A stretch of DNA of 64,000 nt from assembly GCA_964612665.1 (NCBI GenBank), contig CAZTCI010000001.1, positions 508,896-572,895 of the forward strand. The letters run 5' to 3'. Shown piece after piece: positions 9,001-39,000 of this stretch; position 1 is the stretch's first letter; each line of letters begins with the position of its first letter. This DNA comes from an uncultured Planctomycetales bacterium. Its GTDB lineage: Bacteria; Omnitrophota; Gorgyraeia; Zapsychrales; JAHFFX01. Under the pieces are notes generated by a model that was given only the letters and a program-made list of their open reading frames with translations, was not told the origin of the DNA and did no database searches. The position numbers were made by a program, and so were the translations under genes.

Positions 9001-12000
9001 GCGGTTTGCATCGATCATTTGCTGCGCTTCGGCGGCTTCATGATCTAAACGTGAACGGACATTCTTAAGTGTCTTAAACTCGACGGAAGTTTCATTGAAA
9101 TTGGGGAATGGATTATCTTGCGGCATGCCTAATTCGTTACGGACCTGCGCCAATTCTTCGGGAGTCAATAACTGCGAATGGTTTCCTTCCTGACCAATCA
9201 TCGGTCTTAGACCCCAGCCTTTGATCGTATGCGCAATAATTACCGTCGGGCGATCGCTGGCGCGGGCTTCGCTCAAGGCTTTGATTAACTCAACCAAATC
9301 ATGGCCGCCCAAATCGGTAAAGAGCTCATAGATTTTTTCATCGCTGTATTTCTTCAAGAACCGCTTTATTGGCCTTTTCCTTTCCAAAGAGAGTTTCTTA
9401 TTCTTATCATCCAAGGGAAAAGGCCTAATATTGACTTTTGTTTCTTCCTTTGGATTCACAAAAGTCAATAAAGAAGAACGTTGTTCGATCATCCAAGCGC
9501 GGATTCCGGCGCCGTTTTGAGCGGAAAGATTTTGGTAAACTTTCTGGTCGATTGTTTCCATAACTTTCCTAAAGACACTTCCCCCTCGTCGGGCAAAAGC
9601 CGCTTGCAATTTTCGGCCCCAGCGCAGTTCAACGACTTGCCATCCAGCCGCCGCGTACATTCCGCGCAGTTGATCCAATTTCCAGTTTTCGGTATTTCCG
9701 TCGAGTGATTGGCGGTTGTAATCGACAATATGCGTCACGCGGTCCAAGTTAAATTCTTTCACTAACGTCAGAATCTCCCGCAGGTTTCCTTCTTCAGATT
9801 CAGCATCACCCAAGACCGCGAAGAAATGCGAATCAGAAACCGCATGGCCATGCGCCTTGAGCCATTTCCAAACAACGTTAAGTGCTAAGGCAACCGCCGG
9901 CCCTATGCCAACCGAGCCCGTCGGAATTTTGACGCCGTCCGGGTCCGCCATTCCCGGATACGCGTGCAGGCCTGGTTTGTCTAATTCATCCGTGTTGACT
10001 TCCGGATGCTTGGCGATGAAGGCGGCTTTTAATTCTTCAAGTTCTTTTAAGACTTCTGGCGCAAGACGGCCCCTGATATCTTCAGCCCTGAAATCAACCG
10101 GCAGCCGGACAGCGTTATCACGCAAACGATAAAGTGTATCGACGGGTAATCGACCTAAAAGATATTGAATGGCATGATACACCGGCGCGGCGTGCGGTTT
10201 GTGGGCGACAAAATCATGACCGCGCATGACAGCCAGCTCGAGGGCGATCATAATGTGCAATGCAGACGCGGATGCAGCCTGGTGCCCGCCGGTTTTAGGC
10301 AGTTCATATTTAATTTTATTGGCTTCATCAATTTCACCGATTGAAATCCCAAGCGCCCGACGGGCGATGCTTTCTAAAGCTTCGATGTCCTTCGGTGCAA
10401 ATCCTTCCGGAATTTTATCATTTCTATTTCGGGGAGGCCGGTGTCCGGATGAGCTCATTGCAACAATCATCATCGTGGACAAGAACAACGCAGCCACATG
10501 TCCACCTACGAAGTAGGACACAGCCAATAGTCCATCCAGTGCCAGCGCGATGAGGACAAGCGCAGTTGCAAATACGGTGGAGAGGTTTTGATCTGAGCAT
10601 TCTTTTATTCCATTTTTTGTTTTTTTGGTTTCCTGAGCTGAAAACTTTTTCCACCAGGCAAACGTTTCACTCAAACCCGTCCCAATATTCTTTTGTCGTC
10701 TCAACTTGTTGACAATCAAAATGATTAATGTTATGTTGGCGTCGAAAAGATCATTGATCAATAATTGCGTGGCCCTCTTTGAAAGATGGGAGAATCGTAA
10801 GTGAAGATCTGGGAATTTGAATGGGACAACTGGAATATTGAGCATATTGCTAAACATTCCGTAAAATCTCAAGAGGTAGAAGAAGCTTGTTATCGCCGCC
10901 ACGTCGCTAAGAAAACTAAAGATGACATTTATCTTGTCTATGGTCAAACGTATTCTGGCCGTTATCTTTTCATCGTTATTAAATATAAATCTAAAGGAAT
11001 TGTTTACCCTATAACCGCTCGAGACATGACTGATTCTGAGCAGAGATTCTTCCTTAAACGGAGGTAACATATGATTAAGAAGTCTTCTGTAATCCCAAAA
11101 TTTAAGAATGTCGCCGATGCGGCTGAATTCTTCGATCAACATGATACGACCCAGTTTCTCGACGAATTGCAACCAGCGCATCTTAAGTTCCCTAAGCCCA
11201 AGCATCTTTTGATCACCTTGAAACCTAAACAAATAACGAGGCTCAGACGCTTGGCCGACAAAATGGGTAAACCTTCCGATCAAATTGTTGAGCAATGGAT
11301 CACCCAAAAACTTGCCGAAGGGTAATGATCTGCCCAATGTGGCACGGCTCAATTTCTTTACAATCTCTTTAAAAACGCCTTTCGCTTTATCTGAGGATTT
11401 GGTTCGAATCGTCAGTATCAACAGCAACACATCAACGGCCAACACAAGGAACATCAAATGTAATCCCGGTCCCGGAACAAAATATCCTTTAAACACAACC
11501 ACCGGACGTTCCTCATCAGGCAGAAAACCTAATTCCTCGCGGATCTCCTCGGGAGATATTCTTAAAATATGTATGGGCTGAGGATGATCTTCAAAATATT
11601 TTAAGAACAGGCTTGTAATCGTTTGTCCGTTATCAGAAGCAATATGAAGACGGCCCAGAATAAAAAACGTGTCTTTAGCAGCTTTTCGGCCGCGCGATAA
11701 GATATTGATCATATTGGGGAACATGAATGGTTCCCTTAGGTCAATAGCGAATCTAAAGTTCTCCGAGACATTGATCCCTTTCAAAATTTCTTGAACAGCG
11801 GGCTCGGCCTGGCCGACGACATGATTTTCGCGTTTGGCTCTGGCCATGAGGGCTTTTATAAAAACAACAGTCAAATCACGCCAAGTTGTCAAGTCTTTAA
11901 GCATGTCCGCTGAGTTATCCGGGGGCAATGTTACGATCGCGGAAAAAACGAGACTGTTCCGGGTGTTGTAATAAAGAGAAATGCGTCTGTATAACGTTGT

Positions 12001-15000
12001 AACAGGGTGCATATAGCCGGGAGGTAACCATTGGGCCAAATCCTGCCACGTGGGAAGGATGAACAAATTCAACGCAGAATGAATAAATCCTCTTTTTAGC
12101 GATTGCAGTTTATCTAAAGAAACCTTCGAAGGGTCGGACAGCCATTGTTCATATTGCAGATAGTCATCTAATCGGGTGGCCAATTCATAACTCAAAATCT
12201 CCTCGACGCCAAACAAATGTCCTTTGGTACTACGGTTAAAATGGGTCGACACATACCACAGTTCGTCTTCTTTAAACCGGGCCACTCCTTCGACACCCGC
12301 AAAGATTTTCTTGCGTGCGGCCAGGAGATGGATCTCTTCTCTAAATAATTCATGCTCGGGATTGGTATGGTTTTCCCCGATTAAAAACAATCGCGGTGCG
12401 GATTCGGGTTTCAGGCGGACAGCGAGGAAAATTAATGTGCTCAATAAAAACGTCAGGTTTAAACTATTATCGAAACCATGGACGGCAATAAAGAAGCTCT
12501 TGAAATTTTCAGTCTTTTCCAATTTTCTTGACGACAATTCTTTATTGATCTTGTTGCGTTCTGATGACACATAGGCCAGGACAGCATCCAAAAATTTTCG
12601 ATGGATTGAATCTGTGGGTTTTACAATACGGCCATATTCCGCATATAACGATACAGCTTTATCAAAGGAAACTTCCCAACGGAAGCTGACAGTCTTTTGC
12701 CAAACAATGATTTGGCCCCGCCCGACAGATGACAAGAAGGCATTGGCTTTCTCGTCCGACGGGTTTTTCCGCGCCTGCAGCAAAACACACTCTCCATTAA
12801 ATGGAGGATAAAGAACCATCCGGTAAATAAAACCCAAATCACCCCCAAATTTTTGTTTCCTAAATAAATTTTCCAGTGCCTTGAAATGATGTTGTCGGTT
12901 GGAAATATCTCCCCCTCCTTTAGGAAGATATCCGGCAGCAGCATTAATCTTTGACCAAATTGCTTGAACGGCTTTTTGTTTGACATTAAATCTTTCCGCT
13001 ATCTGTTGATCACTTAGACCTTCAACGAAACCATATAAAATATTCAATTGTTTTTCCGTAAATACTGGTTTTGCCACATCGAATTTTGGAAACGGAGGCC
13101 TCCGGTCGACAAGTCCTAACTTTCTCGCTTTTTTGATAAGTTCCCTTCGCTCCGACGTCACAGCCAACACTTTATAAAGTCTCGAAATCTTTGAGCGTAT
13201 ATTGATTGCCGGTGAACTCAGCGCCTGGCCGATCTCAATCGTAGTATTTCCTTTATTAAGCAATCTTAAGATATGAAGTTCAAGCTCACTTAGGATGAAC
13301 GCATGTTTTTTTGCGAAAAGTTGTTTAGGTTTAACCAGCCGCTCAGACGATCCGAAAATCGCCACGCGGTATTCTTCATGCTGATTGAAAAATTTCCAAA
13401 GAAGATAAGGGTAATCATTATTAAAGTCGCGGGGTCCGCTTTTAATTTCCAGATTTAAAAGTTGATGAATTTGGCTCCTTGACTTGCGGATGGTTTCGGA
13501 CCCTGTCTCAAGCTGAGCGGCAATGTCCTTGTCATTTAATCCAGCATAAAGGCCTTTTAGAATGGCTATGTGTCGCGAAGAGAGTTCTTCGACGGACGCA
13601 CAAGATTGAACGCTGCGCGCTATGGCCGCGAGGACAGCGACAAAGATAAAACTGAAATTGGATAAATAATCCGATGGATTTGTAAGGATAAAAAAGTTAT
13701 GCTCTCGCTGCAACCCTGGCAAAAGACTTTGATTATCTCTTTTACGAAAGACTTCAAAGGGTTGAACAAACATAAACTGCGCGCCCGCTGTTCCCCTGCT
13801 AGTTTTAAAAACTTCACTTTGCCTAATCTGATTATTCAACGCATCGAGCGCTTCTTTAAGCGGTTGCGAGGTAATCAAATCTTTCCAGCCTCTTAAGAAG
13901 CCTATCTGTTCGAGCGCGCCAAAGATCCATGGTTCTTCATCAAACACAATAATGGTATCACTAGACCTTAAATCCCTTAATGTATTAAGCAGCCTAACCA
14001 CGACTGGTTGATCGATCCAAAAAGTTCCTTTTAGAATAACAGTCACACTTTCTTGTCCAGCTCGACGTAGAAATTCGACAATATCATCCAGCGCGTTGTC
14101 GATGTGTAACGTTTCCTTAGGGTAAATTCTATTTAGCAAAATTTTTTCTGGCTCCATAAACTGATTCACGAATGATTGCAGCTCCTTATAAGCTCTTTGC
14201 CGGTCTTCATGGTCATAGAGCCGGTCAATTCCGAGGACCAATTGGGCCGGCAGCTCCGCCACAAAAATGTCAACGCCTATTGCGGGATAAATCCGATACG
14301 GTTTTAAGAGACCAACCGCCGCTAAGACTTCTAACTCTCGCCGCCAGGCCTCGGCCAATGGCCCATAATCAACGCTTCCCCGCGATGCCAACCGTCTGCC
14401 TTGTTCTTCAACTATCATGGAAATCGCTTGAATCTGCTGGAGAATTTCTTCTTCGGAAATTATTTTGCCTCCGGTCCGTCTTGTGCTCTTTCGTAACGCT
14501 CGAACCAAAAATATAACCAGCGCGCTAATTGAAATTAGAGCAGCTGCGGCATAAATAAAACCAGTATCAACTAACATCGACGATGATTCTGGATATTTCG
14601 CGTCATAAGTTTTCGCTAATTGATACAACGTCCGCTCTACACGGTCTTTAAGACGGAGGAATTGCCTTTCTGATAGGGTCAATGTCACCATTATCTCTGG
14701 CCAGGAGCATGTCAGAATATGATTATTATTGTTTTTCTCAGCGAAATCACTTTGGCTTGTATCACTGACCGCATCCATAAGGACTTCCAGTTCTAATAGC
14801 GCTTTGACAATTATCTGACTTGTTTCTTCACCTCGACGATAAACATCGGTCATATCTTGTTTGGTTGGCTCCAACCTTTCATCCGTTGAAGGTTCCGGAA
14901 CATTTTCAAGTTCCGTCTCAAAATCAAAAACTTGCTGCTCCAGTTCTCTTCCCTTCTTAACAGCCCAATCCAAGACCGACGCTTTATAAAACAAAAGTAC

Positions 15001-18000
15001 AAATTTCGGCCCGCGCAAATTATGCTTTAAAATATTTAAAATCCTTTCGGCTTCTTCTTGCATCTGGACATAAGAAATCTGGTCTTCATAAATCTGACCC
15101 ATGAGTATCTCAATCAGCTTTCGTTGATCTACATTTATTCTTTCCTCTCTCCAAATTCTCTCGAGGATTGAAGATGTTCCCGACAACTGGACAACCGGCA
15201 TCAGAGTCTCATAAAATTGAAACACCCTCTTTATCATTTCTGATATTTTTTCTGTTCTTTGTCCTTCATGCTGAGGCTTGAACCAAATATCGACTTCCGA
15301 CGTCACAATAAAATTCTTCATCTCTTCGTAATTGGTATTGATCTTTTCTCGAAAACTCTCAATCTTTTCTAATATAACGTTAAAGACTTTGTCCCACCCG
15401 ATTTCAGCTTCGGTTTTGTTTTCATCGGCCGATTTTGTGTCTCCCTCTCGATCCCCTGCTATGCCTTCCGAATGATTTTCAGTGACGATTACCACTATCA
15501 CTGCTCCCACCCACAACATAAAAGAAATGACCGAGAGATCTAAGAAGGAATGCTCATTGTTCCGGTTTCTGTTTCTGAAATTTCTCCTCCGGCCTGATGA
15601 ATTAAATCTTTCTGTCAACCGCCGTAGATCCTCTAAGTTTGCACTCATGCTCAAACCGTAGTCATTAAAAATATCTCTCAGCGTTTCGGTGACTTTGGAA
15701 ATTCCAGAAAAATCGACCTCTTGGCTCAATGAAAGCATTTCCAAGTTATATTGCCGCAGCCAGCCCTGAAATTCCGCGGGGGTGATTCCACGGGATTCCA
15801 AAGCCTCCCAAAGCCGGAGTAATACAATTCCCATTTCTTCGATTGTTTCCGATTGCTGCCGTTCTATTAAATATTCTCCGCTTGTCGCGGGTTCTGGCAA
15901 TCTTGCCGGTTTTTTTCTTGTTTTTTCCGGCCGGGGAATTCTATGGCGAGGAAAGGCATTGTAAACAGCGCGCTGTATATTTACGAGTTCAGTCACTCCG
16001 CTGCTGATGGCATTTTCAGCCGCATGCAATGCCTTTGTGAATTTACTCCGGCTGGAATTGAAAGACTCGAGGAGCCATGGAATAACTTGTTGGTTCAAAA
16101 TTTCTTCACCACGGCGTCTGGCTTCTTCGCTTAAATTAACCTGATGGGATAAAGAAATTCTCTTATTCATCCAGCGGTCTGCGACGACTAATCCTAAGAA
16201 TTTATATTCAGGATACTCATAAAGATAAACACTGTAACGCGGCTCGTCTTCATTCAATTCGACTAACCGGTATGACCTGCCTTCGCCCCGAAAATCTTCA
16301 TAAATTCCTTCACCCAAATCTCTCAAAGAAAACCAGACAAACTCTCCATCTCTAATCTTGAAGATATCCTCCAGCCATCTTCTTTCTTTTGTTATCTGAA
16401 CGAAATACTTTCCGGCCTGCAATTCTTTGGGGGTGGAATTTTGGGGATTAGGTTTCCGGCGTGTGACTAATGTAAACCACAGCCATTCACTCTGATCGCC
16501 GCGTGCCGTAACGATTTTGGCTTTCAGGGAAACATAACCTCGAGTTCCCCATGAATACCAAAGATCAGCGAATCCGCCTAAATACGCGTCTCCGACGTAA
16601 ATTTTATCTAAACGGTAAAGACCTGTAGATACTCTTGGGTCAACAGCTTCAATCCCTTGGCCTTTCTTAATAATCATGTCGAAACCCTTGCGGTGAAAAT
16701 CAGCGATGTCTTTTCTCACATGACTACTCCGCGCTTTAAGCAGCTTTTGTTGCTTTCCTTGAATGCCCCAATAGTGAAGAATCGGGGAACGTTGTAATTT
16801 TCCGCCGATATTTTCTTCAAACCATACCGCAACATACTCGGAATAAACTGAAGACCAGCGCAGCCCTAAGTTTCCATAACGCTTTCGGACTGTAAACGTC
16901 GAATATCTTTTTCCAAAGAGCGGAATCTTTCCGTCGGCGGTAGTTTTAACATTCTCAATCTTAAGCAATTCATATCCTTGGGCAGACCATCGCTGCGCCA
17001 GTTCAAGACTAATGACACTGTATTGGCCCAAATTTTTTTCACGTTGTCCTTCGCGTTTCGATCCTTTAACGACCAGAATTAAACGCTGTTGACGATCGAC
17101 CTCATGCAGCACCATTTCCTGCTTCACTCTTCTCCATAATTTTGTCCACAACCGTATCCAATCTCGACGGCGCGGATAAATCCGTCCAATTTCAATATCA
17201 TTAATAACTCTGGCACTAATGTCTGCCAAAAGGCCGGCGTCTTTTTGGGACATTCCTAATGACTCCCGCACGGCTTTTAATCTCTTCCCTGGTTCTTGAT
17301 AGAAGTGATCCAACAATATCTTCCAGTCTCGCACCCCCCATCTTACCCGTGCCCCTTTTTCTAATCCCTTAATTTTGAAAGGAGTGGTATTGGATAAGTC
17401 AGCGATTTTTTGCGGCGAGAGTTCTAATATATTCCTGAATAACTTTAACTCTCGTCGGGCTTCTTCATACATTGTATTCAACAATAATGCCAAATCATCG
17501 GCTTTCCATCTGGCATTCTTTGACTTTAAATCATTAATTCTATTTCTACTGATATGCGCAAGAGCCGCGAGTTCTTCTGGCGACATTCGCAAAGCTTCCC
17601 GCAATATCTTTAATTGCCGACCGGCCTCTTTATGCAGTTTATTCAATATAATATTCCAACGGTCAACACTCTCCCTAACATGACCATTCTCTAAAGCACT
17701 AATGCGTCTGGCCCTAACCTTGCTCAAAGCACCAACATCTTTTGCCGTCATTCTCAAAGACTTTCTTAATACCTTTAATTGCCGATGGGCCTCTTCATGC
17801 AGGTCCTCGAAGTTCCATAATTCCGATCGGGACATGTTGAGTAATTCTCTGGATCTCTCTAACAGTTCAATCGATTTTTTATCATCTTGCCCCTGTCTTT
17901 GGGAAGAAGCCGCCATGCCAAGAATCACTAAGGATAAAACGGAGTATACCATCCATAAATTGCTTATAATTTGAACAACCGTTAAGATAATAATCGTCGT

Positions 18001-21000
18001 CGGTAAAATGATCAAGATTTGGGCAGATGAGGTTTTGTCGCGATAAGTCTTTTCAAATTTTCTAAGTGATTTCTCGGTTTTAGAAAGGACGTCATTATAT
18101 GAAACAACCATGAAGACCGCTGCTGATACAAACATCAACAACGGCAAAACAAAATGCCCAGTTCCCCGGACACTTTCCCATCCGGTAAAGATCGGCACCA
18201 GAAAGGAATTTTCCACCTCAACATCGGAAGTTGAGGTCATTTTGCTCTGATTTTGCAGGATCCGAGCTATCCGGGAAAGATAGAGAACATAAATAACGCT
18301 TGCGAAACCAATAAGCAACGTGAACAATTCTCCATTGAAAGCAATCATTCCGAAACCAAACAACTTTGTACGATCTTCCATGAATGTTTTAAGGAAATCT
18401 CTCATCTTTTCTTGAATTTGAGATCGAAAGATATCCTGAACCCGGCGAGGCATAATATTCATACGGGTGCCCGCTTGTTTCCATGCTTCAAATTTTTCTT
18501 TGGTGAATTCTGCCATGAGCCATTGATCTTCTTCGATGGTCTTCAACATGCCACCTTTTTGGGGGTCAAACATTTCACCCAAAACTCTTGAAAAGTCATT
18601 CACATCAAAAGCGACCATGCGACCCAGCTTTCCATCATGAGAAAATGTCAGACCGTAATTTTCTCGCCAATTATGAAAATCGCGATCAACCAGTCCATAT
18701 GTCCAAATCCGACGCGTCAAATTCGAGAATTCGTTTTGAATGTGCCGAAGCTCCATTTGCAAAGCACTCACCTCATCCCACTGTTTATGTTTCTCAGAAA
18801 TCTTTATACGACGGGCAATGGCATCCAGCACTTCTCCAACGGGATGCACGCGTTCTTGAACAATCACATAAGGGAAACTGGTAAGTTTCTCATCCACGAC
18901 AATCGTCAAGTTATTTAAAATAGTCAACGTCATGGCAAAAAGATGGCCCAAATGTTCTTTAACCAATAGGTATCCAGGCAACACTTCTCTCTCGAAGTCC
19001 ACGTCGGCCTTCGGGACCTTGATAATAAGATTTGGAAACGCATAGGAGTAATATGCTTTCATCAGCCCGCCTTGGTCCAAATAATGAAAGGTATGACCTC
19101 GTAGAATACCTTCAACGGTGGTGATTCGAATGTGGTCAAGGTGTTCCTGTAAAACAGTATCCTCTATTCCCATTCTACGCCCCCATTGCATCAACCTTTC
19201 AGGCCAGCCCTCCATATAATTGTCCAATAGCGCTTCCAGAAGAGCATCTTTTAAATTGTTCCTGATCCGACGTGATATAGGTTGGAGGTGGCGTTGAATT
19301 AGTTTTTGATATAACCATCTGAGTATTAATATTAGAGTAACAGCAGTAACTGCGATCAACACCCCTACACGCCACCCATGCATCAGCTCGCTAGAAATAA
19401 GCTGGGCGTTGGATTTTTCCGTTGTTACATCAACCTGCGGGGCCGAAACAGATGAAAACATTTCATCCACCAGCCGTTTGGCTTCCTTGGCCGCATCCAT
19501 GCTTGAACTCATTTTTCCCGAAAAAATGGAAATCTCTCGCGGACTTAAATGCTGAACCGTCGTCGGCCGCGCCGCATTCTGAACCGAACTCACCAGAAAA
19601 TCTTTGAGGGTAAAGATCGAACCAATATGGATCGGATTGAAATCGTGGAAGAATCGATGAGCTTCTTCTTTGATTTGGTCAAATGCCGTCACCGTTGGAT
19701 TCCAGATGATATCGCGTCCCAGTAAATCTTTATACTCATCGGGAATTTCTGGAAATTTGCCAACGTTGAGATGATGAATCGAGTGCTTCACATGAGCGAT
19801 AAAGTGCGCATTATTGCCTAAAGGATTGATCCCGACAAACGGCCCGTCCATAATCAAAATACTTTTGCCCCGGAATGCCGGAGGAAGAAGGACGACAGGC
19901 AACTCAAAAACTTCGAATTGATAGTTTTGCTGATTGGCCGGTTCCGCAATGAACCGATTAATATCGCTGTAAACGGCGTAGACAACGGCATCATAGTTCT
20001 TTAATTTTTCCGGAGTTGCCTCCTGAATGAGCACCTGCACATTGAATTCCTTAAGTTTATCAACGGAGATCTCCGCCAGCTTGCGGATGTTCATAAAGTC
20101 TTCCCCAACAAGCAGCGATAATCCCACAGAATTTTGTTTTAACACCTCCGGATACTTTGTCTCGTAAGGCAAATTAAAACGATTTAATAAAGTCAAATAC
20201 TGCTCGGGCGTAACCGCGCTTCCTTCCGCGGCGATTGCATAGTATTGTTCCAAACTCAAAACCGCTTCACCGAAGACACTCAAAAAGCTTTCACGAGAAT
20301 TAATGACTTCTTGGACAGTTTCTGGACTGCGCGGGTGATGATAGCCGCGATGCAAGCGGCGATCCCAATTGCCGGACACGCCGCCGAAGAGTTTGTTGCG
20401 TTCATACAAAGTCACATCGTATCGAGAATCTTGAGCAATAAACCATGCGGCCGTGATCCCGAAGATTCCGCCTCCGATGACAGCGACTTTGCGTTTCGAT
20501 GGAGCAACAAACGCAGAACGGGACGCCGAAGGAGGTATCCCGGCATCGGCACTCAAATCGAAATCAAAGTATGGCTCCTCAAGCATGTCATCCAAATCGA
20601 TTCCCTCGAAGACCTCTCCCGAATTATCATTAGATTGAACAACTTTAGGATTCACGGGTTCTTCATCTTTCCAATTCCATCCGCCCGCTGCGATCTTTTC
20701 ATCAAACAACCGATGCGGATAACGCATAATGACCGCGTTGACGCCGGCGAATCCGCCCATGCCGTCGTGAACATCGTAACGGCCGCGGATGATGTATTCG
20801 CGATTCCAACGCACCGCTCCGTTTTTCTCGTGATAGCCTTGCGCCGCGTCGGGACTGTAGGTCAGCAATTCTTCCAGAGCATCGCGCCAGGCTTGCAAAG
20901 CTTGAATGTAAATGACCGCAGTGCCGATCCCGCCGACTTGCTTGCCTCGCACGCGATAATGATCGACCCGCGGATGTTTGGCCACAGCCAAGACCGATGG

Positions 21001-27000: not shown

Positions 27001-30000
27001 GATCACCAACGTCCATGGGTTAGGAACTTTTTTAGACAAATGCGCGGACAAATGATCTGAAATGGTTTCTTCCAGCGCACTCTGCCAGATATATCGTTGA
27101 GAACGACCGGCAAGAAGTTCGATTCTTCTGGATGAAGAAACGATATTTATATTAAGAAAATCAACATTCTGTTGCCTGTGGATTTGCTGTGCCGCCAGCT
27201 GGACAACGCTATGTAGGATAAGGCCGGCTAACGCGGGTTGATTGTTCAGTTTCAAAAGACCGACGACAAATCTGCGGGGAAGATAAATGACGGGGCCATT
27301 GTCATTCCATTCCGTCGCAGCGACAGCCACATGACGCCAGTTGTCCGCATAAAGGAATGGTTGGCTCTCATCTTCGCGATCGCGAACCAAGATCAATTGA
27401 CTTCGAAGAAGGATGTCAAACAAATCGCTCGCCGCGACGAAATCAAACAATCCTCCCCGAATTTGATCCCACGGGATATTCATCAACGCACTTAAACTCG
27501 CGTCGAGAATTGAGCGATGCAACTCCATGTGAGTTAATAACGGTTCAACATAACGTTCATTCCTTCGACGAACTTTGTCGATTAGTTCCTGGATTTTCTT
27601 GTACTCTATATTCCATGCCTTCACTAACCTGCCGTTCTCATGATTTGTCATGACACCTGCGGCGGCCATCAGCATGAGGGAAGCCGTCACCGCAATGAGA
27701 CTAAAAGACCAACCACCGCCGAGCTGCTCCCATCCCAACAAAGCCTTCGCTTGATGATCTTTGTGATTAAATCTTTTATCGTCTGAATTAACCAGGGGCG
27801 TAATATCTTGAGCCATGGGCAGCGGCTCGATATGATTTCCGTTCGTGGATTTTTCTCTTGGCTCCCGTAAAAGTGAAGCCTCGTAGCCAATACCTCGATC
27901 TTTTCCATTATTTGGCCATAAACGATATTTCTGCAAGAACGAAGGGTCCTTAAGACTCTTTTTCAAATTTTGAATCATGATTCGACTCTTTATATCGCTT
28001 TTGAGAAATTCATTCCTTAACCTCAGAATGATATTCACAAACTGCTGTTGAGTTACAAGGACTCTTGTTTCTTTAAGCATCTGGTGTCCATAATATTTTA
28101 TGGCCATGCTGATGAGTTGCTTGATATCAGACTTTCCACCGTATGAATTCTCACTATATTCCTCAATAACTTTTCTGATCGCTTCGATCAAACCTGGATC
28201 ACCTTCCACCCGTCGATATTCTTCTTCTGTGATATAAACTGCATTCTCCTCGGGAAGCAGCATGACATCACCATTCGCAAACGGGCCTTCTATTTTTAAA
28301 AGACCGTCCCGCTTGGCTATCACGTGGCCAACTTTATAATAACGGTGTTCGACATATAAAACATCATTCTTAACGGGGTTAAAGCGGCGTCCAGGCATTT
28401 GAAAACGCCACAGAGGATATAAATTCTTTTCCAATTTTGAGATGATCTTAAGACTTATTGGATAGAGCGTATTCTTGCGAGGCAATCTCGCGCCACGGAT
28501 TTTCGCAACGGAAACTTCACATATCTGAACAAGACGCTTATCGGAGATCTCCATTATTTTGGGATTGTCCATAAGGCGATTGAGCGCTTCGCGCGCCTCG
28601 ATGAGTTGTTTAAGCACCGGCCGCATCTTGGCGATCACGTTTTCAGATGGAGTGGCTTTTTGTAGACGATATAGCTTGGCATCACGAGAAACTTTGGAAC
28701 GCTGATTGATCTCTGAATCCGTAATGCCCAGTTGGTTGGCTTGCGTGAGCAGTTGAACCAGTTCTATTCGAAGTTTTTTGAGATCTGGCCTTTGTTCTTT
28801 GAAATATTCCGTCAGGGCCATAAGCAATTTAGAGATAGTCGATGCGTGCGGCAACGTCCTATTTCCGGCTGCAATCATACTGATCGTGGTCTGATCCACC
28901 CCAGATAATTTTGCCAAACTCTCCTGATTTAATCCTTGCTCAAAAGCGTTCGTCATCAAGACGAGTACACTTCTAAATTGTTCCGCCGGAGATCCTGCCA
29001 TAGGCAGTCGATCCAATTTACTTTCAATCGATGCAATCGTATCTCGCCTTAATTGCGCCGGAGCCTCTCCTAATATTTTGCGCAGCGTTTTGTCATCAAT
29101 ACCCAATCTCGCCCGGATGGCCCGTCCCGAATATTGGCCTTCCTTATTAAGTCTCTTGATGTAATTCTGAAGGTCAACGGGAAGAATCACCATCACAGCC
29201 AATCCCGACAGGATTTTTAATACAATTATTATTCCTTTGAGGCCGATCAAAAGCCACGTGGATTCGAGGGTGATCGAGGAGAGTTTCTCCGTGTTTTCGT
29301 TTGAAGATTTTTTCCCAGGTTTGTCTTCATACTGCGCCACTTCTTTTAATTTCGACGCCAAACGATCAATATAGTCCTGAGCCTCGTCGGTGACGACGTA
29401 ACCCTGAGCTTCCAGGACATCCAAAACTTCCAGCACAAAAGCGGCCATCATCAAATAATGAATCAAATTTCTACTTTTCCAAGAAGACCATTCTCGAGGA
29501 GAATTTTCTTCTACATAGATCGGTTGAGGAATCGTTTCAACACGGCCTCCCACTTCTCTCAATTGCGAATGAATATTCTCAATCTTAGGAAGATAATCAA
29601 CATACCGCCACAACACATTTTCTTCTGTCTCGATATCCACCCCTTCGCGGAAATAATTCCAGGCCGTCACGATCATTTTCTGATCATAATCTCGCTTTGA
29701 AACGATTCCTTCCCGTCGAAAAACGTACTCACGATCAATCGTGCCCGAAATCATATGCATATAATACAGATCAATATATCGTCGGCCGCCGTTATTCCAT
29801 GGTTTTAAGTCCAAGTTGAATCGTTGATTGGCCTGGAAAATAACCTCGGGGTTAATCAATGTTCTATACAATAGAAGTTCCGTACCAATGGAATCGATGG
29901 TTCTCGTATCCGTGTCGATGAGTATAATTCGGTCTGTTTCCGGAGATAAAATCCCCTCGTCGTGCCAGTATTTGACAAAAAGGACCGCTTGAAGTGAATC

Positions 30001-33000
30001 TTGCCGAACGGCTTGGTCATTGTGCATTGTCGCCCAAACACTATGCATGCGCTCTTCAGGAAATTCTTCTGTAATTCTGGTGTAAATCTTTGACATTTCA
30101 AAAAGCGGTTCGGCTCCTGCTCGCAAGAACACAATACGCGTGTTCTTCCGGTATTGCTTATTCTCTTCGTGGGATCGAGGATATTCTTTGATACGCATGA
30201 ATACGTGTTGTATGAAATCCATCAATCCCAGTCTGCGCTCGGCGCCATGACCCAAAAATGTCGTCAAATGTTTAGTATCCAAATAGTGTTGATACGCTTT
30301 GGCAAACATTGCTTGATCCCCCGCAGAAAAGATTCGTCCGAGGGATTGAATACTCTGATTACGCGCGCGAACATTATCTTCATGTAATCTGAGTCGATTT
30401 AATCTAACCGAGGCAATGGCCGCAAATCCTGCCAGGATTTTAAAGATCAGCATTACACCCTTGATGCCGATTATGATCCACGCGGCGTCGAGGGTGAGGG
30501 CGGGAAGCTTTCCAACATCAGATGTTGGAAAGGGCGGGTTCAACCTGCGGGGTTGATGTCCGTTGGCATGCTTCTCTTGCGGATGGGTGAACTTTTCCGA
30601 GGAAAACTTCTTTATATCTTGGTCGCTCCACTCTTCTCCAAACACCTTTTTTAAATCCGATTTATTTCCGTTCTTTCCGTTCCTCTCCTTCTTTGCCAAA
30701 TCGTCATAGAATTTTTTCATGATCTCATCTTGCCGACGATCGAACTCCTCGGCGGAGAGAGACCAGTCATCTCGCTCTCGTTTGTATGCTTCCTCCGGTT
30801 TCCGATTCTGATTTAACCAAACGTCCTTAAGAACATCGTAGAGATTACACAACATGCGATTCCCCGCAAATTGCCTTAATCCCTCCCGATTGTCCTTATT
30901 CTTCAATATAATGCGGGCCATTTTAGTCTTCTCGAGATCCTGCTTGAGAAGGTGAACTAGGGCTTCATGGCGTCCGAGGTTTATTTTGGCCTCCCCGAAC
31001 ATGTCTTTCACAATTTGAACAAAAAGCTCAGGACCGATCTCCCTCATCGATAGCCAGGCATGCAAGACGATTTCTACTTTTTCTTCCTCGCTTTGAATAC
31101 GATGATGCCAAATCCAGATTTCATCAGAATTTTTGAGACCGCCAGAGGCATGGGAAGATCGAGAAAGGTCCCCATAGATCACACCGACGACGAAGAAGAC
31201 CACGATCAACATTTGTATCGGCGAGAGAACCGTCGACTCCACTCCCAATCCCAAGGCATTCATGGCCGTTGGTTTCCCGGGCCCGCGGAATGCTGTGAGT
31301 TCATTCAACCTGCGGGGTTGATGCCCGTCGGCAATTTCATTCGAAGACTTGATGTGGCGGAATCCTCGGTCGGAGATGTTCAATGTGAACCCATCCTCAT
31401 CAGAGAAACTACTGTAAAACAAAATCTCCCGGGCCAAATACGTTTCGTTAAACTCGATGACCAGCGCCTCACGCTTTTGGCCCATCTCCAACAGATCGTT
31501 CCACAAGAATGTTCTTGAAAAACGAAGTTCGCCAGCACCGATACGAAACGTAATGATGATGTCATTTCCGATGAGCCGGCCTTTCACAAAATAGATCCCT
31601 TGATCTTCCGTCACAATCCGGATTCTGGAATGTCTCAACAGCGTTGAAATCGGCAATTTGATTACTTCTCTGATATGATAAACTTTCTGGAGGGAATATT
31701 CGGCGTAGAAGGACAGCTCGTCTGCATCTGGAAGATGAAGGATAAAGTCATGAATCGGCGGCAATCCGCAGGCGGAATTGGTGAGCATGGCCATGATCAT
31801 AAAACGGATCAGCGTCGGGCTGCGAGTGAAACCAGCGACCTTAAGCCAGAATAGCCATACGATCATTGCCGTAATCAAAACGGCGAGGAAATATGCTAAG
31901 AAAGCAGCTGATAATTTCTCCTCAGAAGACGTCTTCCACCAGGTATATTTTTCCTTCATCTCATGATAGGAATTCAAAATAAGATTTAACGTTCCCTTCA
32001 CGCTTTGTTCCGTTGTCCCCCGCTCGGTGCTGATGTCTTGAATCGTCCATCCATTTAAGATCAGCGTAATAATCTCGCGCTGCGGCGGCGACATTTGATT
32101 CAATAGGGCCCGACGATGTGGATCCAATGATTGAGAATCGCGGATAATTTCGCCCAGGATTTGTTTCCGTTGAGAAGCACCCGCGCCTTGGAAATGAATG
32201 TTGATGCCTTCATGCAGCGGATATAATTCATCGCACCTTTCTTCCCGTTCAATTTGTTCTCTTAGGGGTTTCAAAGACAATTCGTTCTTAAGATCACGGT
32301 ATCTGAGTAATCCTCGACGGGCGGTGATGATCACCGTAGTCCACTTAATCTGCAATAGTCGGGCCACATCCGCCGGATGATAACCTGCAATGGCAAACGG
32401 AAGAATTTCTCGCTCCTTTTCCTCCAGCTGATCAAAGATCTCTCGATGGTCCAAGAGAAAATCTTGTTTAACCTCTCTGAGAATATTGATGAATTCTCGA
32501 CGGTTGGGAGATTTCAGGAAGAAATTGAATTCCGCATCTCGATCGTTGCGGATAACCATCATGGCCAACATGCCGGGTAAAAGGAGTATGACCAAAAAGT
32601 AAAGGCCCTGTATTTCTATAAAAATGATCTGTGTAAACGCGATCAAGACAAGCACGGACGGGAATACGGCGGAAAGTTTTTCCACCTTCCGATCTTGCGA
32701 TGTGGGGGCCAACTCTTTCTCAACAAGCTCCCCACGATATACCATCCGCTGAACAAGGCCCATCGGATAATTGATTTCTTTTAAGTCACCCTTATAGGCT
32801 TCACGCCGGATAACTTCATTGAGCAGGCGAAGTTTCTTTTTGATCTTTTGGACCTGATCTTTTTCTTGCGCACTTAAACTTTGATGATTAACGTATTTTT
32901 TGTGAAGTGTATAATCGTAAACGCTGAGCGAGATCGTCTGTTGTTCTTCTCCAACAATAACGACATTACCTTGATCCCCGGCTGGTTCGATGAAGAATTG

Positions 33001-36000
33001 ATACACAATTCCCTCAGCATAGAGATAATATTGGATTTGTGCATGGCTGTTATTAAAAATGCGGATATCATCAACCGAAAGATAATGCGGCCCATCAGGA
33101 TGATTGTGCAGGTCCAAATAAACGAGGGGATAATCTGGATTTAGTTCCGGACCGACGGAATCCTTATCGCCTTTGACGATACTGTAAAGGTCCCCTTCCA
33201 AGGATTGATGGGAAACTTCAAAAGGTAAATATCCAGAGGCGACGGTGTAAAAACGATCAATCGCGCGCCAGAACTCCGGCGTCCCGACGGCCGCGGCAAA
33301 TGGTCGAGCGCTGTAGCGTGTTCCTTCCTTCGCACTAATAATATCCTGCTTTATCTGATCGAGCGTCATGACTGGCCGACGCTGGATCCGGGAGATAAAC
33401 TTCCGACGGATGAATTCCTGGGCTTCCAGTTCATGGACGGCCATACCGATTATCGCGACCGCCGTCAGGCCGAGCAGGCTAAGCCAATCGGTATAGGCGG
33501 AAAGTTTTTCCACCTTCCCAACCCCGGAGGTTGGGGAGGATAATAATTTTTGGCTAAGATCTGCAGCCACATCCAAGTTTTCCAACACTTTCGTCGCATC
33601 TTTAGAACTTTTAATAAAGACAACCGCCTGAGAAACCGCCGCCGATATTGTTTCTATTTCGCCGATCATCGGAAAACTTCTCTTCCAAATAGCAAACTGG
33701 TGATTCCACGCAGCCAAACGCAGTTTGATGGCCAGATACCTCTTATCGGCCCATAACTCCTTCACTTGATCTCGGGCATGGACCATCGACGGGATTCGGT
33801 CCAAGGACAGGAGCAATCTTTCCTGATTTTCCCGTCGTTGTGCTTCCTGAAGTTCCCGTAATTCTTTTCTAATTTGCTGTAGTTCTTTTAAACTATGGAA
33901 CAATTGCTCAGTGGACGGGCCTTTAAGGACCGTCCGCGACATAGCTGCTGCCATTGCCCCCATCCCAGCAGAGAGCAATATCTTTCCGACGGGGATTCCA
34001 AACCATAACGCGGTCCCCCCATCTACACCTACGAGGTAAAGATGGATCCCCACTCCATACAACGCCAGTGCAATCATGACGGATGGAAATATGGCGAAAA
34101 GTTTTTCCACCTTCCCAACCCCGGGGGTTGGGGAGGATCTGAGGATCACCGCCAGCATTTCAATTAGTCCAACCAATCCCTTAAACACAATCCAAATCCA
34201 CACGGCTTCGATCGTGACGGCGGAGACGTTCTCGATGGGATTGTGATCGAATTCTTCTAGCGCATCGATTTTTCCGTATAAATATTGGGCCAAATGGCGG
34301 ATATCTTTTCGATAGTCGTGCGTCTTAACCAAATCCCAGAGGTTCAATTGTTCCCATTGATCGCCGGCAGCTTCGAGAGCTGCTTGGATTATCTTTAACC
34401 ATTCCTTCGCATAGAATTCTCGATGACGGAAATTGGACGCCACAATCCAGTGCAGTAATTCTTCTTCGGAAGATGTCTTCAACATCTCAATCGCGGCCCG
34501 GCGTTTGGCTGGCGAAGTGACCACCAAATCATTCATCCGCAAATGCTCGTTGAGAATGTGCTTCAGGCGCCGAGTCCTGGCAGAATTCGCCAAGCTGGTT
34601 TTATTTGTGAAGTCATCAAGAGAATTGAACGGATTGTTTAGCTTGCGAACCATCACCACAAATTCGGTCTGCGTCATTGTAAATCCACTCAAAAGAAAAT
34701 CCACCTCATCAGCGTAATTAAGGAAATATAGAATTTGTTTTTTGGTGTTTTTCGGGTGCTTCTGCAATTCTCGACGATGTTGCTCCGCATTTTCTTTCTT
34801 CTCTTTTCGTCTTTCGTTCTCTTTCTCTAAATCCGCCCGTGCCCTTTCACGAGGATTCTGAAATAGAATCTCTCGACGGTTTTCGGACGTTCGTTCCCAC
34901 GACATCGCAAAGACAAAGATATATGCCAGCAACATCCACGGACTGAACAGATAAGTACGAACTCCGGAATGATGGACGATTTGTTTCTGTGGAGTTTCTT
35001 CTTTAGTTGACAAGCCAACTTTCAGGGCTTGGGCGCGGCTGGCGGAGAGGTAAATCAACCGTTGAACAAACATGCCCGCGATCATCAGCACCGTAAAGAC
35101 ACTCATTCCCGTCGATAAATCGATCGTCACGGCGCGGTGTTTTTCGATATCAGAAGAACGACTTGGTGTTTTATCTTGTGCATTCAACCTGCGGGGTTGA
35201 ATGGACATCCTGTTCCCCTTCACACCTCCGAGGCGCGAAAGAGCATTATTTCTTAGCTTTTTACGAATACTTATAATTTTTAACACTGAACGAATATGCC
35301 ATTCTCTTAGCCCCAACCGCTCTTCCCGGATTTCTAATCTATCCCCAGGATATTTTTCAAAATCTGCAGTCACAATTTCGATAAGCCGTTCCCTTTTTTC
35401 TAGCTTTTCTCTTAAACGCACTCCCGCGGCTTTCTGCTTTAAGAACGTTAAATCATAATCCGGCCATATTTTGCTAATAATGTAATTCGACACTTGTTCA
35501 ATGTATTGATGCGATGATCCCATCTGTTCGACAATGATGCTTGATGATTGATCCAAAGCTATTTTGCGGACTAACACTTCTTTTTGCGGGAGCGTTAGTC
35601 CATACCTATCTCCTATATCGTTAAGGGTCCTTACAAGTCCTTCTTTAGTGATGGCATAGCCACTACTCTCCATAATGTCGCGAGCAAAACTTACTCTATT
35701 ACCATGCTCCATCGCTGTCTCCTGAGACGATAGAGAAGATCGGTATTCCTGGATCCCTTTTTGGCGATCTCGGTTTCGCGCATATGTATTTCGTTCGCCT
35801 CGAATTTTTAAATTAATTCCATTAACGACATATGTCAATAAGCCTACGCCATTGCGCCGATCAAATTTGATCACACTGCTGCGAATAGTTTTAATGAAGT
35901 CATCTGTTCTTTCCTTTAGGAAGGATCTATTCCATCTCTGTTTAACTAAGGGCATTTCTGTCAGACCGGCGATGAGGACTTCCATCGCCAAACCATCTTT

Positions 36001-39000
36001 CTTATCTTGAATAAGGTCAATTAAACGGCTCTGTTGCTCACGGCTTAAATATCCTCTGGAATGACGTGGCATGCCCAAGATCGTATTGACAGCGGCTTCA
36101 TCTCTTTGCTGAGGAGCCCAAATAATTTTAAGTTTAGACTCTTTAATAACCGGCACAGGAGGATTCAGCCCGTACCATTTCTTCATTTCATAAAGAATTT
36201 CTACTGAGCTTTTTCCTTTTAGATCGTGATTTTTTGCCCAGTTCAGCAGAAGCCCCTCTAAACATTTTCCTCCAAACCCTGGAATACCTGTATGAATAAT
36301 ATCGCCCACTTTTAAATCTACTATCTTCCCTGCACGGCGATGATTGGCTAGATGTTGAAGGATCGCCCATTGCAACCGCTCTTCAAGTTTGTCCCAGGAG
36401 AATTTCCTCGCCCGTCGGAATTGATCCAATACCGTTTCCAATTCTTCAAGGGTTACTGGTTTTTCTTCTGCCATCGTCATAAGAACAGCAGATGCGCAGA
36501 GGACTGCTATCCACGCTTCCGCACCTACGAGGTGCTGATGGGTAACCATGGCGACGAAAGCGGCGGAAATGATGATAAAGCGGAAGACTCCGTCGAGGAA
36601 ATCATTCAGTCGGCTGGGTTGAACAAATACAATTCGACGCAAAATGGAATTCACATTGTCTTGGCCGACATACGCAAGCGCCGCCGCAATTCCTACCAGA
36701 ACAAAAATCCATAAGGATGGACCAACGGCCATCAGTTTTATCTCTCGATCCCAAAACTGACTTGGCCCACACCGGCGGACAACAAATTTCTTTTCCAAAT
36801 CCTCTTTGACCGTCGTCACATCTTCTTGGACGATCGCGTCCGCCACACGTAAAGAAAATCCCATTTGCAGGGCCTGACGGCCGGGCATGGATGGGCTATA
36901 TCTCAAGCGAAGCCCCTGAATCAACGCGCGATAGGGCGCTTCCTGTCCCCGGAGAAACTTAAGGAAGGCAAACTGTTTGATTTCTTTGGTGGATACGGAG
37001 GTTTCAATATTATTTCTAAGATACGCTAAAAATTCTTTGTAATAACTGACCCAGTGCTCAAGGATTCTTTCCAGCCCCAACTCATTTAATTGTTTGTTCA
37101 AACGATTTGTGTTCCCAAAGACCAAATCTGTCGGTTTAAATTTATCAAATGTATCGGAGGTAATAGGACTCAATAAACAGCGCTCATTTAACGTTGATAC
37201 ACTGAGCTCATGCTTTTCGCCCCCGATTCTGACCCACCGCCCCAATCCCCGTCGGGCCAGGGCAATGAGATATTCGGGTTCGATATCAAATTGATCTTTC
37301 CCTTGATAATAAACGTGAATGTCCAGGTCCTTGATCATGGACCACAATGGGATTTGATTTTCGCTAAAAAGATAGGTCGAGGAGCCGGTGACCGTGATGA
37401 TCGGAGCCTCCACAATGGATAACGTAGCGACTTGCTTTAGAAGTTCGATTAAATCGACCGGCGGTAAAGCTGGATTGTCTGGCTGAACAATAAACTGGCG
37501 CTCAGGACGATAGTAGGAAATGTGTTCATCTTGGTCCACGATCAAAACAGGCCAATGCACTGTTTGGACCGCCGCCAGTAATATCAGCGCGTAGACCGCC
37601 TCGTTCAAACCGATCAGATCTCCGTGGGCCAAAAGACCGGATAAAGCCGCGAGGATGGCGATAGGGCGGAAGAGTTGTGCGATCAACCTGCGGGAGTGAA
37701 CAGACTTGATAAAGCGGAAAATTCCGTCGAGGAATAACATCACCCTCTCCGACGGCGGCGAAGTCTTGAGAAATTCGTAAAACGCGCGGAGGTTTTCAAG
37801 GATGACGCGGGATTTGGAGATTAGAACAGCGGCCATCAAAACAATAATGAGAATTTCCGCGAGGTGAAACACATTATTCGACGAAAAATTTGATTTTCTC
37901 GTCGGTCTTATCCGTGCAGTCGAAAGGAAATCGATTCGATGGGCGTTCAACGTCGCGGCATCTAATAATTCAAACCCTGGGAATGTTTGATCGACGATAT
38001 GTTTAATCAAATCCGCCAACTGATCCGCAGGGATTTTGATTAGATATCCTGGAATTCGGTGCATCTGCTGAGGACTAATTTCCCTCATCTCTTCTGCAGT
38101 CAAAAATTGAACCGCGGCCATCGATACAACCCGGCCTTCTAATCTGTTGACAGTCCATTTTCGCGACATTATACTTTGAATCGAAAAGGAGATAGATTGA
38201 TGACTTCTCTTCAAGATGCTATGAAAATCATTAAACCGCTTCAAAACCGTTTCAAGAAAAGCCATAAGTCCAGAAGAAAAACGAAGATTGCCGACGATCT
38301 TTTGGGTGCGTTCAAAGGTGCGACCGAAGGTAAATCTTCCAGTCAATGTGTTCGAGAATTGAGAAATTCTTCTTATGGTAAGTTTAAATAACCCTTCCTT
38401 GCTCTTGGACTCCGATGTCCTTGTCAGCTGGTTGACGCTCGAAGAAGATATTCTTACCCATAAAAAGCTCTGGGAAGCTCCCCACAAAATAATGACAATG
38501 GTTGAGGAAAATTCTTCTCTCGGTTGTTCAACGATTATCAATCTTATGGAAATCAGGTTTGTGTTGCGTGCTAAGAAGAAATTCAGTGAGCATAAGATTA
38601 CATCTTCTCTTAATAAACTCTCCGAGATTCTGAAGCTATTCATTCCAGATGAAATCAACCTATTAAAGGCGAATGAACTCCAGTCCAAATATCTTTCATT
38701 ATCGCCAACCGACGCTATCCTTCTGTCTGTGGCCACAACCCTAGACAATGTTGTCCTAATCACCCGCGATCGAGAATTATTGAAAGCTGCCTCAAAAATT
38801 GTCTCCGCATCAACTCCTGAAGAATTTCTGGCGAAACGCTGATCTCTTCTGTTCCAATAAAAATTCCCCACCAGCATTGCAATTAGCCCAACCACTCCCT
38901 TAAACACAATCCAAATAAAGCGGAAAATTCCGTCGAGGAATAACATCATCATCTTCGACGGCGGTGAGGTTTTAAGAAGTTCGTAGAACGCGCGGAGGTT

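Follow-up and report, generated by a model that had tools for sequence, protein, structure and literature searches.

Toxin-antitoxin operons nested antisense in a giant, stop-free reading frame predicted to encode an Omnitrophota membrane protein

The 64,000-nucleotide stretch analysed here (contig CAZTCI010000001.1 of assembly GCA_964612665.1, an uncultured Planctomycetales bacterium, positions 508,896 to 572,895 of the forward strand; hereafter the window, with coordinates counted from its first letter) is covered on the minus strand by a single stop-free frame spanning positions 1-63999. This giant open reading frame (ORF) comprises 21,333 codons and is open past both ends of the window; the other five frames contain 849-1,344 stops each. 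Two predicted toxin-antitoxin (TA) operons, a BrnT/BrnA pair and a pair formed by a small antitoxin-like gene and a PIN-domain toxin gene, are embedded in the giant ORF, and the giant frame stays open through both. The initial annotation had located a giant ORF with embedded TA operons at 10700-38900: the ORF is real and larger than was claimed, and the two operons indeed lie at both borders of that segment. However, the TA genes do not occupy 'cargo slots' of the ORF itself, as had been proposed, but are located on the opposite (plus) strand, where they are fully nested in antisense orientation.

The BrnT/BrnA operon is headed by a sigma-70-type promoter recognised by sequence reading (TTGACA-N17-TATGTT, 10709..10737, plus strand). 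A GGGAGA ribosome-binding site (RBS) at 10788-10793 precedes the GTG start of a gene for a BrnT-family ribonuclease toxin of 88 aa (10801..11067, plus strand), which matches PF04365 over positions 1-77 of 77 (E 9e-7). The toxin gene is antisense to the giant frame, in codon register with it, and contains zero TTA, CTA or TCA codons. Its product is 42% identical to the nested BrnT of a related locus, L036, whose own Pfam match has an E value of 6e-11. The operon has a toxin-first order, with the brnA start 4 nt past the brnT stop. The brnA gene (11071..11325, plus strand; ATG start, GGAGG RBS) encodes a BrnA/CopG-type ribbon-helix-helix (RHH) antitoxin of 84 aa that matches PF12441 over positions 3-78 of 79 (E 5e-9, over the gathering score), and it too is nested antisense in register. 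The window BrnA is 28% identical to that of L036, and its match to the NCBIfam BrnA model (E 4e-4) is well under the cut-off.

The second operon is organised in the antitoxin-first manner. A sigma-70-type promoter (TTGACA-N17-TATACT, 38147..38175, plus strand) is followed by a small antitoxin-like gene of 63 aa with an AAGGAG RBS (38200..38391, plus strand), which overlaps the start of the toxin gene by 17 nt. Three helices are predicted for the 63-aa product (AF2, pLDDT 75), and its homologues, 42-47% identical, are found upstream of PIN genes in the related loci L013 and L017. The toxin gene (38375..38842, plus strand) encodes a VapC-like PIN-domain protein of 155 aa, which matches PF01850 over positions 2-118 of 120 (E 9.5e-9, over the gathering score) and is nested antisense one base off the giant codon register. 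The acidic, catalytic residues D12, D14, E44, D113 and D132 are invariant in 18 sequences. All 24 homologues of the PIN protein are stand-alone proteins of ~150-170 aa, with identities reaching 66%, and the antitoxin-PIN order is retained in related loci.

BrnT, BrnA and the antitoxin-like gene share the codon register of the giant frame, so that any TTA, CTA or TCA codon within them is a stop in the giant frame. None of the 35 Leu and Ser codons in these three in-register ORFs is one of the three, versus 12 of 46 in the PIN gene, which lies in the other register (Fisher p = 8e-4). When the four TA ORFs were resampled with synonymous codons according to host codon usage, all four left the giant frame open in only 5e-5 of trials; the earlier proposition that the TA genes are kept ORF-compatible is thus borne out. 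The remaining two antisense frames across the TA genes carry 2-14 stops per gene. The codon-usage score of the giant frame, generally 0.26 ± 0.08, falls to ~0 at PIN and BrnT, and these are the only places in 64 kb where a plus-strand frame scores clearly above it. Judged from codon usage, the coding signal within the cassettes is that of the TA strand, and the giant frame there appears to be open but not optimised.

A comparison of two pairs of near-identical contigs from different samples (99.4% identical) also bears on which strand is constrained. Within 1,307 nt of TA coding sequence the pairs differed at a single site, which leaves the antitoxin unaltered and replaces L with F in the giant frame; within 1,261 nt of flanking giant ORF they differed at 15 sites, and 13 of these differences alter the giant protein (Fisher p = 2e-4). 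Members of the PIN clade share 48-57% identity in the PIN frame but 34-41% in the giant frame read from the same DNA. Conservation is therefore stronger on the TA strand. With their promoters, RBSs, invariant catalytic residues and near absence of substitutions, the TA genes are not the inactive pseudogenes that the initial annotation had named as evidence against its own hypothesis, and, from their sequences, both operons look intact and functional. In one segment of a metagenome contig (L004, 62-134), compared with L003, a contig from another sample that is otherwise 99.4% identical, we observed 10 substitutions within 73 nt, mostly C>T or A>G, of which nine change the giant protein; this cluster could possibly reflect gene conversion between repeat units or localised diversification.

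The arrangement is not confined to the window. The 13 fetched loci with a PIN protein at least 48% identical to that of the window consist of six unbinned metagenome contigs (L002-L007) and seven genome loci. The six contigs come from five or six samples, range in GC content from 36 to 50% and each have one antisense frame that is stop-free over the entire contig (0.9-2.9 kb). A clade-alignment scan of one genome per GTDB species yielded 35 loci, and in all seven of those with PIN identity of at least 48% the antisense frame was stop-free over the full 10-20 kb fetched. Four of these seven belong to Candidatus Omnitrophota metagenome-assembled genomes (MAGs) and three to genomes labelled 'uncultured Planctomycetales'. 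The open frame occurs in one and the same register relative to the PIN codons in 14 of 14 nested cases, the window included, and a counterpart of the sigma-70-type promoter is present upstream of the antitoxin gene in 11 of 12 nested loci. In full-length PIN homologues with identities of 47% or less, from Nitrospirota, Elusimicrobia, many archaea and two Omnitrophota loci, none of the antisense frames is open over the match, each containing 1-5 stops, and homologues at 36-43% identity are found in neighbourhoods of ordinary genes. In the nested register, full-length free-living homologues contain 1-6 stops and never 0. Two Omnitrophota MAGs (L018 and L023) encode PIN homologues 45-46% identical that are not nested, with 3-4 antisense stops, and free-standing relatives hence exist in the phylum.

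The nested genes of the related loci extend to further TA families. We scanned the antisense strand only, as opposed to the alternative frames of both strands in the window, and obtained 122 ORFs of at least 65 aa. The family matches comprised PIN (14), DUF433 (3), DUF5615 (3), DUF5647 (2), HicA (2) and HicB (2), together with single matches to BrnT, CopG, MazF/PemK and an AF2212-like family. The sole non-TA match, a weak one to Exo84_C (E 1.2e-4), was taken as noise. In L014, positions 6789-9791 (~3 kb) are tiled by four antisense operons, namely a DUF-type small gene with a retropepsin-like gene, a DUF5647 gene, HicB/HicA and antitoxin/PIN, and the giant frame is stop-free throughout; the L014 giant protein would accordingly contain ~1,000 residues of antisense-derived sequence over this segment. 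The BrnT/BrnA pair of L036 is in codon-aligned register, as in the window. Outside the segment antisense to the cassette, we found no similarity among the giant frames of the window and the related loci, and no synteny of the cassette with neighbouring giant-frame domains across the loci. The related giant frames carry in-frame HATPase_c, receiver and NTP_transf_2 domains. The last of these, in the L014 giant frame (aa ~2263-2325), is an MNT-like nucleotidyltransferase, a family often acting as a TA component, which hints at capture of TA-type domains in sense orientation.

Direct repeats adjoin the PIN cassette in several of these loci as well as in the window. The window pair, D2, consists of two 200-nt copies of a TM-linker (transmembrane-linker) module of the giant protein (37709..37908 and 38915..39114) that flank the cassette, are 84% identical and are spaced by 1,206 nt, or 402 codons. 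Elsewhere, the flanking repeats measure ~215 nt at 68% identity in L015 and 58 nt at 100% identity in L017, and were also noted in L006 and, by eye, in L003. The perfect 58-nt repeats of L017 (9670-9727 and 10468-10525) lie directly around the antitoxin/PIN cassette, which suggests that the cassette was recently inserted or duplicated or arrived by Campbell-type integration. Over all loci, flanking repeats adjoin 4 of 19 TA blocks, versus 4 of 100 random control positions. Because similar repeats adjoin the PIN cassette in L015, L017, L006 and L003, the D2 pair looks like the footprint of a cassette insertion or duplication.

Protein-level self-comparison combined with a nucleotide repeat search showed that direct repeats of any kind cover 4.0% of the bases of the window, with identities of 62-90%. 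Exact direct repeats are no longer than 46 bp anywhere in the window and no longer than 34 bp where they touch 10700-38900, and Tandem Repeats Finder (TRF) returned no tandem array. Rather than being highly repetitive, the giant gene is a mosaic in which most of the sequence is unique. Of the repeats described in the initial annotation, the 1-kb tandem exists but lies outside 10700-38900, at 43951..45677 (minus strand); its copies are ~85% identical in nucleotides and 75% in amino acids, and each contains an HTH_3 domain. These copies also show weak matches to MqsA/YdaS/Xre-antitoxin-like helix-turn-helix (HTH) domains and an internal sub-repeat of ~33 nt (44655-44954). The '160-bp linker copies' correspond to four 165-nt units at 17240..17802 (minus strand; giant aa ~15400-15620), 62-78% identical, which are real but encode tandem in-frame XRE-type HTH domains rather than linkers. 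Duplicated TM modules are present as described, in the form of D2 and of a second pair, 21737-21839 / 22850-22952 (81% identity). D2 is the only repeat pair in the window that brackets a TA operon; deletion between copies of the 1-kb tandem repeat, of the HTH repeats or of the repeat pair D6 would remove no TA gene. In the segment 29000-39100 (minus strand, giant aa ~8300-11700), diverged module repeats of ~400 aa (23-37% amino-acid identity) with two recurring TM types were noted; the peptides HQPRRLN and SSPTSGVGKVEKLSA, and HL(Y/H)LVGVDG, are conserved ahead of the TM types and have a short-hairpin look in the DNA. We considered whether the hairpin-like motifs (TTCAACCTGCGGGGTTGA and others) could be attC-like recombination sites and rejected this, since they encode linker peptides (HQPRRLN, SSPTSGVGKVEKLSA) before TM helices.

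The product of the giant ORF is a TM-rich mosaic protein, with in-frame Pfam domains along its whole length (1..63999, minus strand). A Kyte-Doolittle scan detected ~55 strongly hydrophobic 19-residue TM-like segments, or 2.6 per 1000 aa. The amino-acid make-up is normal apart from Cys, which accounts for 35 of 21,333 residues (0.16%), versus 0.2-1.1% in the related giant frames. Pfam matches in the giant frame include several XRE-type HTH domains, 3-4 of them in tandem, sigma-70 region 4 and GerE/LuxR, as well as a Rossmann N-terminus, TPR repeats, HATPase_c (2e-22), the transketolase N (1e-23) and Pyr (4e-10) domains, a methyltransferase (5e-14) and a response-regulator receiver. A divergent SecA_DEAD-like and P-loop_SecA segment (42328..43704, minus strand) falls marginally under the gathering scores (SecA_DEAD, E 2.2e-5, 24.3 bits against a cut-off of 24.6; P-loop_SecA, E 1.4e-4, 22 against 27). 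No glycoside hydrolase or peptidase domain was found in the 64-kb part of the giant protein, the N-terminus of which lies beyond the window. The presence of more than 10 HTH, sigma-r4 or LuxR DNA-binding domains together with HATPase_c and receiver domains inside a TM-rich giant protein is odd for a supposed surface or predation protein. A Pfam search of 1000-aa pieces of the giant protein at E values up to 0.5 revealed no sense-strand toxin domains, only HTH-type domains resembling the DNA-binding parts of antitoxins. Among 5.8 billion proteins, a 1,950-aa piece of the giant protein (19003-24852, minus strand) had no match at E<=1e-3, and the SecA-like piece (42100-43902, minus strand) had one weak SecA-like homologue, P0001. 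An Rfam scan of the window gave no match. An alternative genetic code and eukaryotic DNA were considered and rejected, given that one frame is stop-free throughout.

Other alternative-frame ORFs of the window do not stand out from expectation. There are 167 of at least 55 aa, compared with 150-187 expected from codon shuffling, and the only family matches among them, BrnT_toxin, CopG_antitoxin and PIN, are all within 10700-38900; the 93 such ORFs outside that segment have no family match. A tblastn search with 37 nested TA proteins detected no decayed TA remnants in the window. A small coiled-coil gene with a GGAGGGGG RBS (23083..23460, plus strand), in codon register with the giant frame and with generic coiled-coil family matches only, is broken by a single TAG at 23203-23205, which is CTA (Leu) in the giant frame; it is probably a pseudogene that decayed while the giant frame stayed open. 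The plus-strand ORFs 20245-21168, 25721-26194 and 31060-31518 were rejected as nested genes, having no family matches and being compatible with chance. The third-ranked codon-usage spot, 52323-52562 (plus strand; 0.19 versus 0.13 for the giant frame), contains no ORF of at least 55 aa and no family match.

The giant genes described in Omnitrophota combine many TM regions with methyltransferases and a divergent SecA DEAD domain, the last being reported as their hallmark (West-Roberts et al. 2023, 10.1101/2023.11.21.568195). The window resembles these genes ('Archaeovorin'-type) in its tens-of-kb ORF, many TM helices, methyltransferase domain, candidate SecA DEAD-like domain and mostly unannotatable, fast-evolving sequence, and the nearest nested-PIN relatives sit in giant ORFs of Omnitrophota MAGs. 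It differs in being rich in cytoplasmic-type regulatory domains (HTH, HATPase, receiver), whereas glycoside hydrolases and peptidases are stressed for the published Omnitrophota giants. The terms 'antisense', 'nested' and 'opposite strand' are absent from 10.1101/2023.11.21.568195 and from 10.64898/2026.06.07.730766, both of which are analyses of domains and flanking genes, and the only antitoxin named in the published neighbourhood analysis of Omnitrophota giant genes is a flanking gene. A full-text literature search found no mention of nested or antisense genes in giant ORFs. TA modules, giant genes and antisense overlaps are each known, and it is their nested combination that is absent from those two studies.

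Each of the better-known arrangements shares some, but not all, features with the window. PMC12548467 cites two elements that TA cassettes stabilise, the Vibrio superintegron (Iqbal et al. 2015) and SXT, where the module is mosAT (Wozniak & Waldor 2009). As in the window, type II TA modules reside there in long dispensable or costly DNA, the loss of which would lead to post-segregational killing, and this is the basis of the insurance idea put forward in the initial annotation; but each of those TA modules has an intergenic or cassette position to itself, set between attC repeats in a repeat-rich array, whereas the window TA genes overlap a coding frame fully and are accompanied by few repeats. 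Szekeres and colleagues are likewise said to have described, in Mol Microbiol in 2007, TA cassettes that stabilise chromosomal arrays. Antisense overlapping genes of bacteria also consist of two coding frames on opposite strands, and their codon-aligned register is that of BrnT, BrnA and the antitoxin-like gene. To our knowledge, the reported bacterial overlaps of this kind are single, short and usually young ORFs, the coding status of which is debated. In the window-type overlaps, by contrast, the nested genes are old conserved families, the overlaps are recurrent and 0.5-3 kb long, and the giant frame is the overprinting partner, with stop avoidance only. The palindromic elements of Rickettsia, reportedly translated in-frame (a finding ascribed to Ogata et al. 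in Science, 2000), and inteins are similar to nested TA modules in that a selfish insert persists since the host frame and its product survive. Yet the palindromic elements are non-coding repeats of ~100-150 bp and inteins splice out, whereas the nested TA module is predicted to be a whole, separately transcribed opposite-strand operon with the added property of addiction.

The explanation we favour, with a probability of roughly 0.6, is a joint one: the window would lie inside a membrane-protein gene of more than 64 kb, comparable to the giant genes reported from Omnitrophota, and the nested operons would be selfish addiction cassettes adapted to read-through-compatible residence on the opposite strand of such genes. 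Omnitrophota would then be the host. The TA cassettes would be older than the overlap, because free-living homologues exist. They would have colonised permissive loops between TM segments and, once nested, would be hard to lose, because a cell that deletes them keeps the stable toxin and loses the labile antitoxin. Non-addictive inserts would decay, the coiled-coil gene at 23083-23460 being a possible example, and addiction would be the reason why TA operons persist rather than other genes. Ribosomes would need to read through the cassettes, as at least two-thirds of the giant protein is encoded downstream of them. A stop inside a cassette would also uncouple translation from transcription; selection would therefore bar giant-frame stops across the cassettes, and the avoidance of TTA, CTA and TCA in the TA genes would be its visible trace. 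Within the close clade, the PIN cassette is nested in every case examined, and protection of the surrounding giant gene from cassette-spanning deletions would be a side-effect. What we infer in this scheme is that addiction makes the cassettes persist, that read-through drives the selection, that the cassettes are mobile and that the window belongs to an Omnitrophota host.

Several observations weigh against this explanation. Protein, genome-contig and metagenome-contig homology searches returned nothing useful as an orthologue of the giant gene. We saw neither a transposase nor an integrase, nor any conserved ends of the cassettes; similarity between loci ended at the operon borders. Translation of the giant frame through the cassettes would follow from stop avoidance only. 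The loci that document recurrence were ascertained via the PIN gene, so that the density of TA genes in them is biased and enrichment selected by the host is possible. The identity of the TA partners is also less than canonical. The antitoxin/PIN operon is like VapBC in having a small overlapping antitoxin gene before PIN and in keeping the acidic catalytic residues, but the partner, a predicted three-helix protein, has no Pfam or NCBIfam match and hence falls into no recognised VapB class (AbrB, RHH, Phd/YefM, MerR). Similarly, the BrnT/BrnA operon is like Brucella BrnTA in its toxin-first brnT-brnA order and CopG/RHH antitoxin, but the window BrnT scores 29.5 bits with PF04365, below the gathering score of 34.5.

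The initial annotation had viewed the TA operons as anti-deletion insurance: they would be kept for the benefit that they bring to a costly, deletion-prone giant gene, killing cells in which a deletion, RecA-mediated or other, had occurred. We consider this unlikely. Nested TA operons are recurrent, with several families together in related giant ORFs; the PIN cassette lies between direct repeats that would delete it on recombining, 200 nt long and 84% identical in the window, 58 nt long and 100% identical in L017; stabilisation by TA modules has a precedent in the superintegron and SXT, as cited in PMC12548467; and no TA-less allele was seen, though no giant-gene orthologue was retrieved. However, the picture of a recombination-prone, highly repetitive gene guarded by TA modules is not supported by the window, in which the repeats are sparse and diverged, exact identity does not exceed 46 bp, and a gene of at least 64 kb contains two TA operons, 27 kb apart. 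No TA operon is enclosed by the 1-kb tandem, by the HTH repeats or by D6, and the repeats that do enclose one are specific to the PIN cassette and footprint-like. The predicted correlation between TA density and repeat content was not found over eight giant-ORF segments (rho 0.31, p 0.46), a comparison that is underpowered. Recombination of the cassette-flanking repeats would remove the cassette alone, which amounts to classical selfish self-preservation, and self-preservation accounts for the same data without a benefit at the host level; insurance of the host would then possibly be no more than its by-product. Co-option of the operons for some other service to the cell or the giant gene, either as a phage-defence or abortive-infection island or in the control or processing of the giant mRNA by transcriptional interference, antisense RNA or cleavage, appears to us just as unlikely as insurance. 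A role in phage defence is generally known for many type II TA systems and is noted in PMC12548467 as well, and clusters of TA families, such as the four operons in 3 kb of L014, resemble defence islands. Moreover, the promoters pointing into giant-gene transcription are kept in 11 of 12 loci, every nested gene with a family match is antisense to the giant ORF (although only the antisense strand was scanned in the related loci), and the nested toxins of characterised activity (PIN, BrnT, HicA, MazF) are RNases. Yet antisense may merely be the easiest orientation for keeping an overlapping frame open, and elsewhere these families are ordinary selfish TA modules.

A more improbable alternative is that the giant gene grew by reading through intergenic TA islands between large same-strand genes, such that nesting is a relic of fusion and overprinting. 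The giant protein does combine, in mosaic fashion, cytoplasmic-type domains that are unrelated to one another (kinase ATPase, receiver, HTH, sigma r4, transketolase and methyltransferase) and are split by TM segments, the coding signal of the giant frame is absent over the TA segments, and the frame traverses TA islands of up to 3 kb in L014. On the other hand, the direct repeats adjoining the PIN cassette, including the perfect 58-nt pair, point to local insertion or duplication in an existing frame, and this one cassette recurs across many giant frames that are unrelated to one another; the insertion and fusion routes both need a later purging of stops and are hard to tell apart on that basis. 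Finally, the notion that the TA genes are spurious antisense ORFs, or that the open frame results from assembly or composition, could draw on the shuffle-like number of alternative-frame ORFs and on the subthreshold score of BrnT, but is effectively refuted. PIN homologues are full-length, up to 66% identical and carry invariant catalytic residues, BrnA and PIN exceed their gathering scores, promoters and RBSs are present, the 64-kb open frame contains strong in-frame domains, and the arrangement is reproduced in 13 independent assemblies.

Residence of addiction cassettes in giant genes could amount to a mutualism. In this extended version, which we regard as speculative, though less doubtful than insurance or co-option taken singly, a guild of TA modules (PIN, BrnTA, HicAB, MazF, DUF433/DUF5615 and others) would be long resident in Omnitrophota giant genes and recoded for opposite-strand read-through, making a costly gene of the 100-kb class hard to lose, while insertion, duplication and decay of the cassettes would feed overprinted linkers into the giant protein. 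If so, no larger recurrent set of bona fide antisense-overlapping protein-coding genes would be known from bacteria.

In the loci described here, antisense overlap of an open frame with conserved genes is long (0.5-3 kb), recurrent and statistically well supported. Such overlap is usually rare and disputed in bacteria; here, recoding of the host frame can be measured and the nested partners have clear homologues. Standard gene callers of the Prodigal type skip genes nested in a called ORF, and the TA and defence content of giant genes is accordingly invisible in annotations. The nested operons constitute an unreported layer of Omnitrophota giant-gene biology, which bears on the upkeep and growth of 100-kb genes and on the stabilisation of host genes by addiction modules. 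They also suggest that giant proteins tolerate hundreds to a thousand near-arbitrary residues in the loops between their TM segments, a tolerance that any model of their folding and function has to accommodate.

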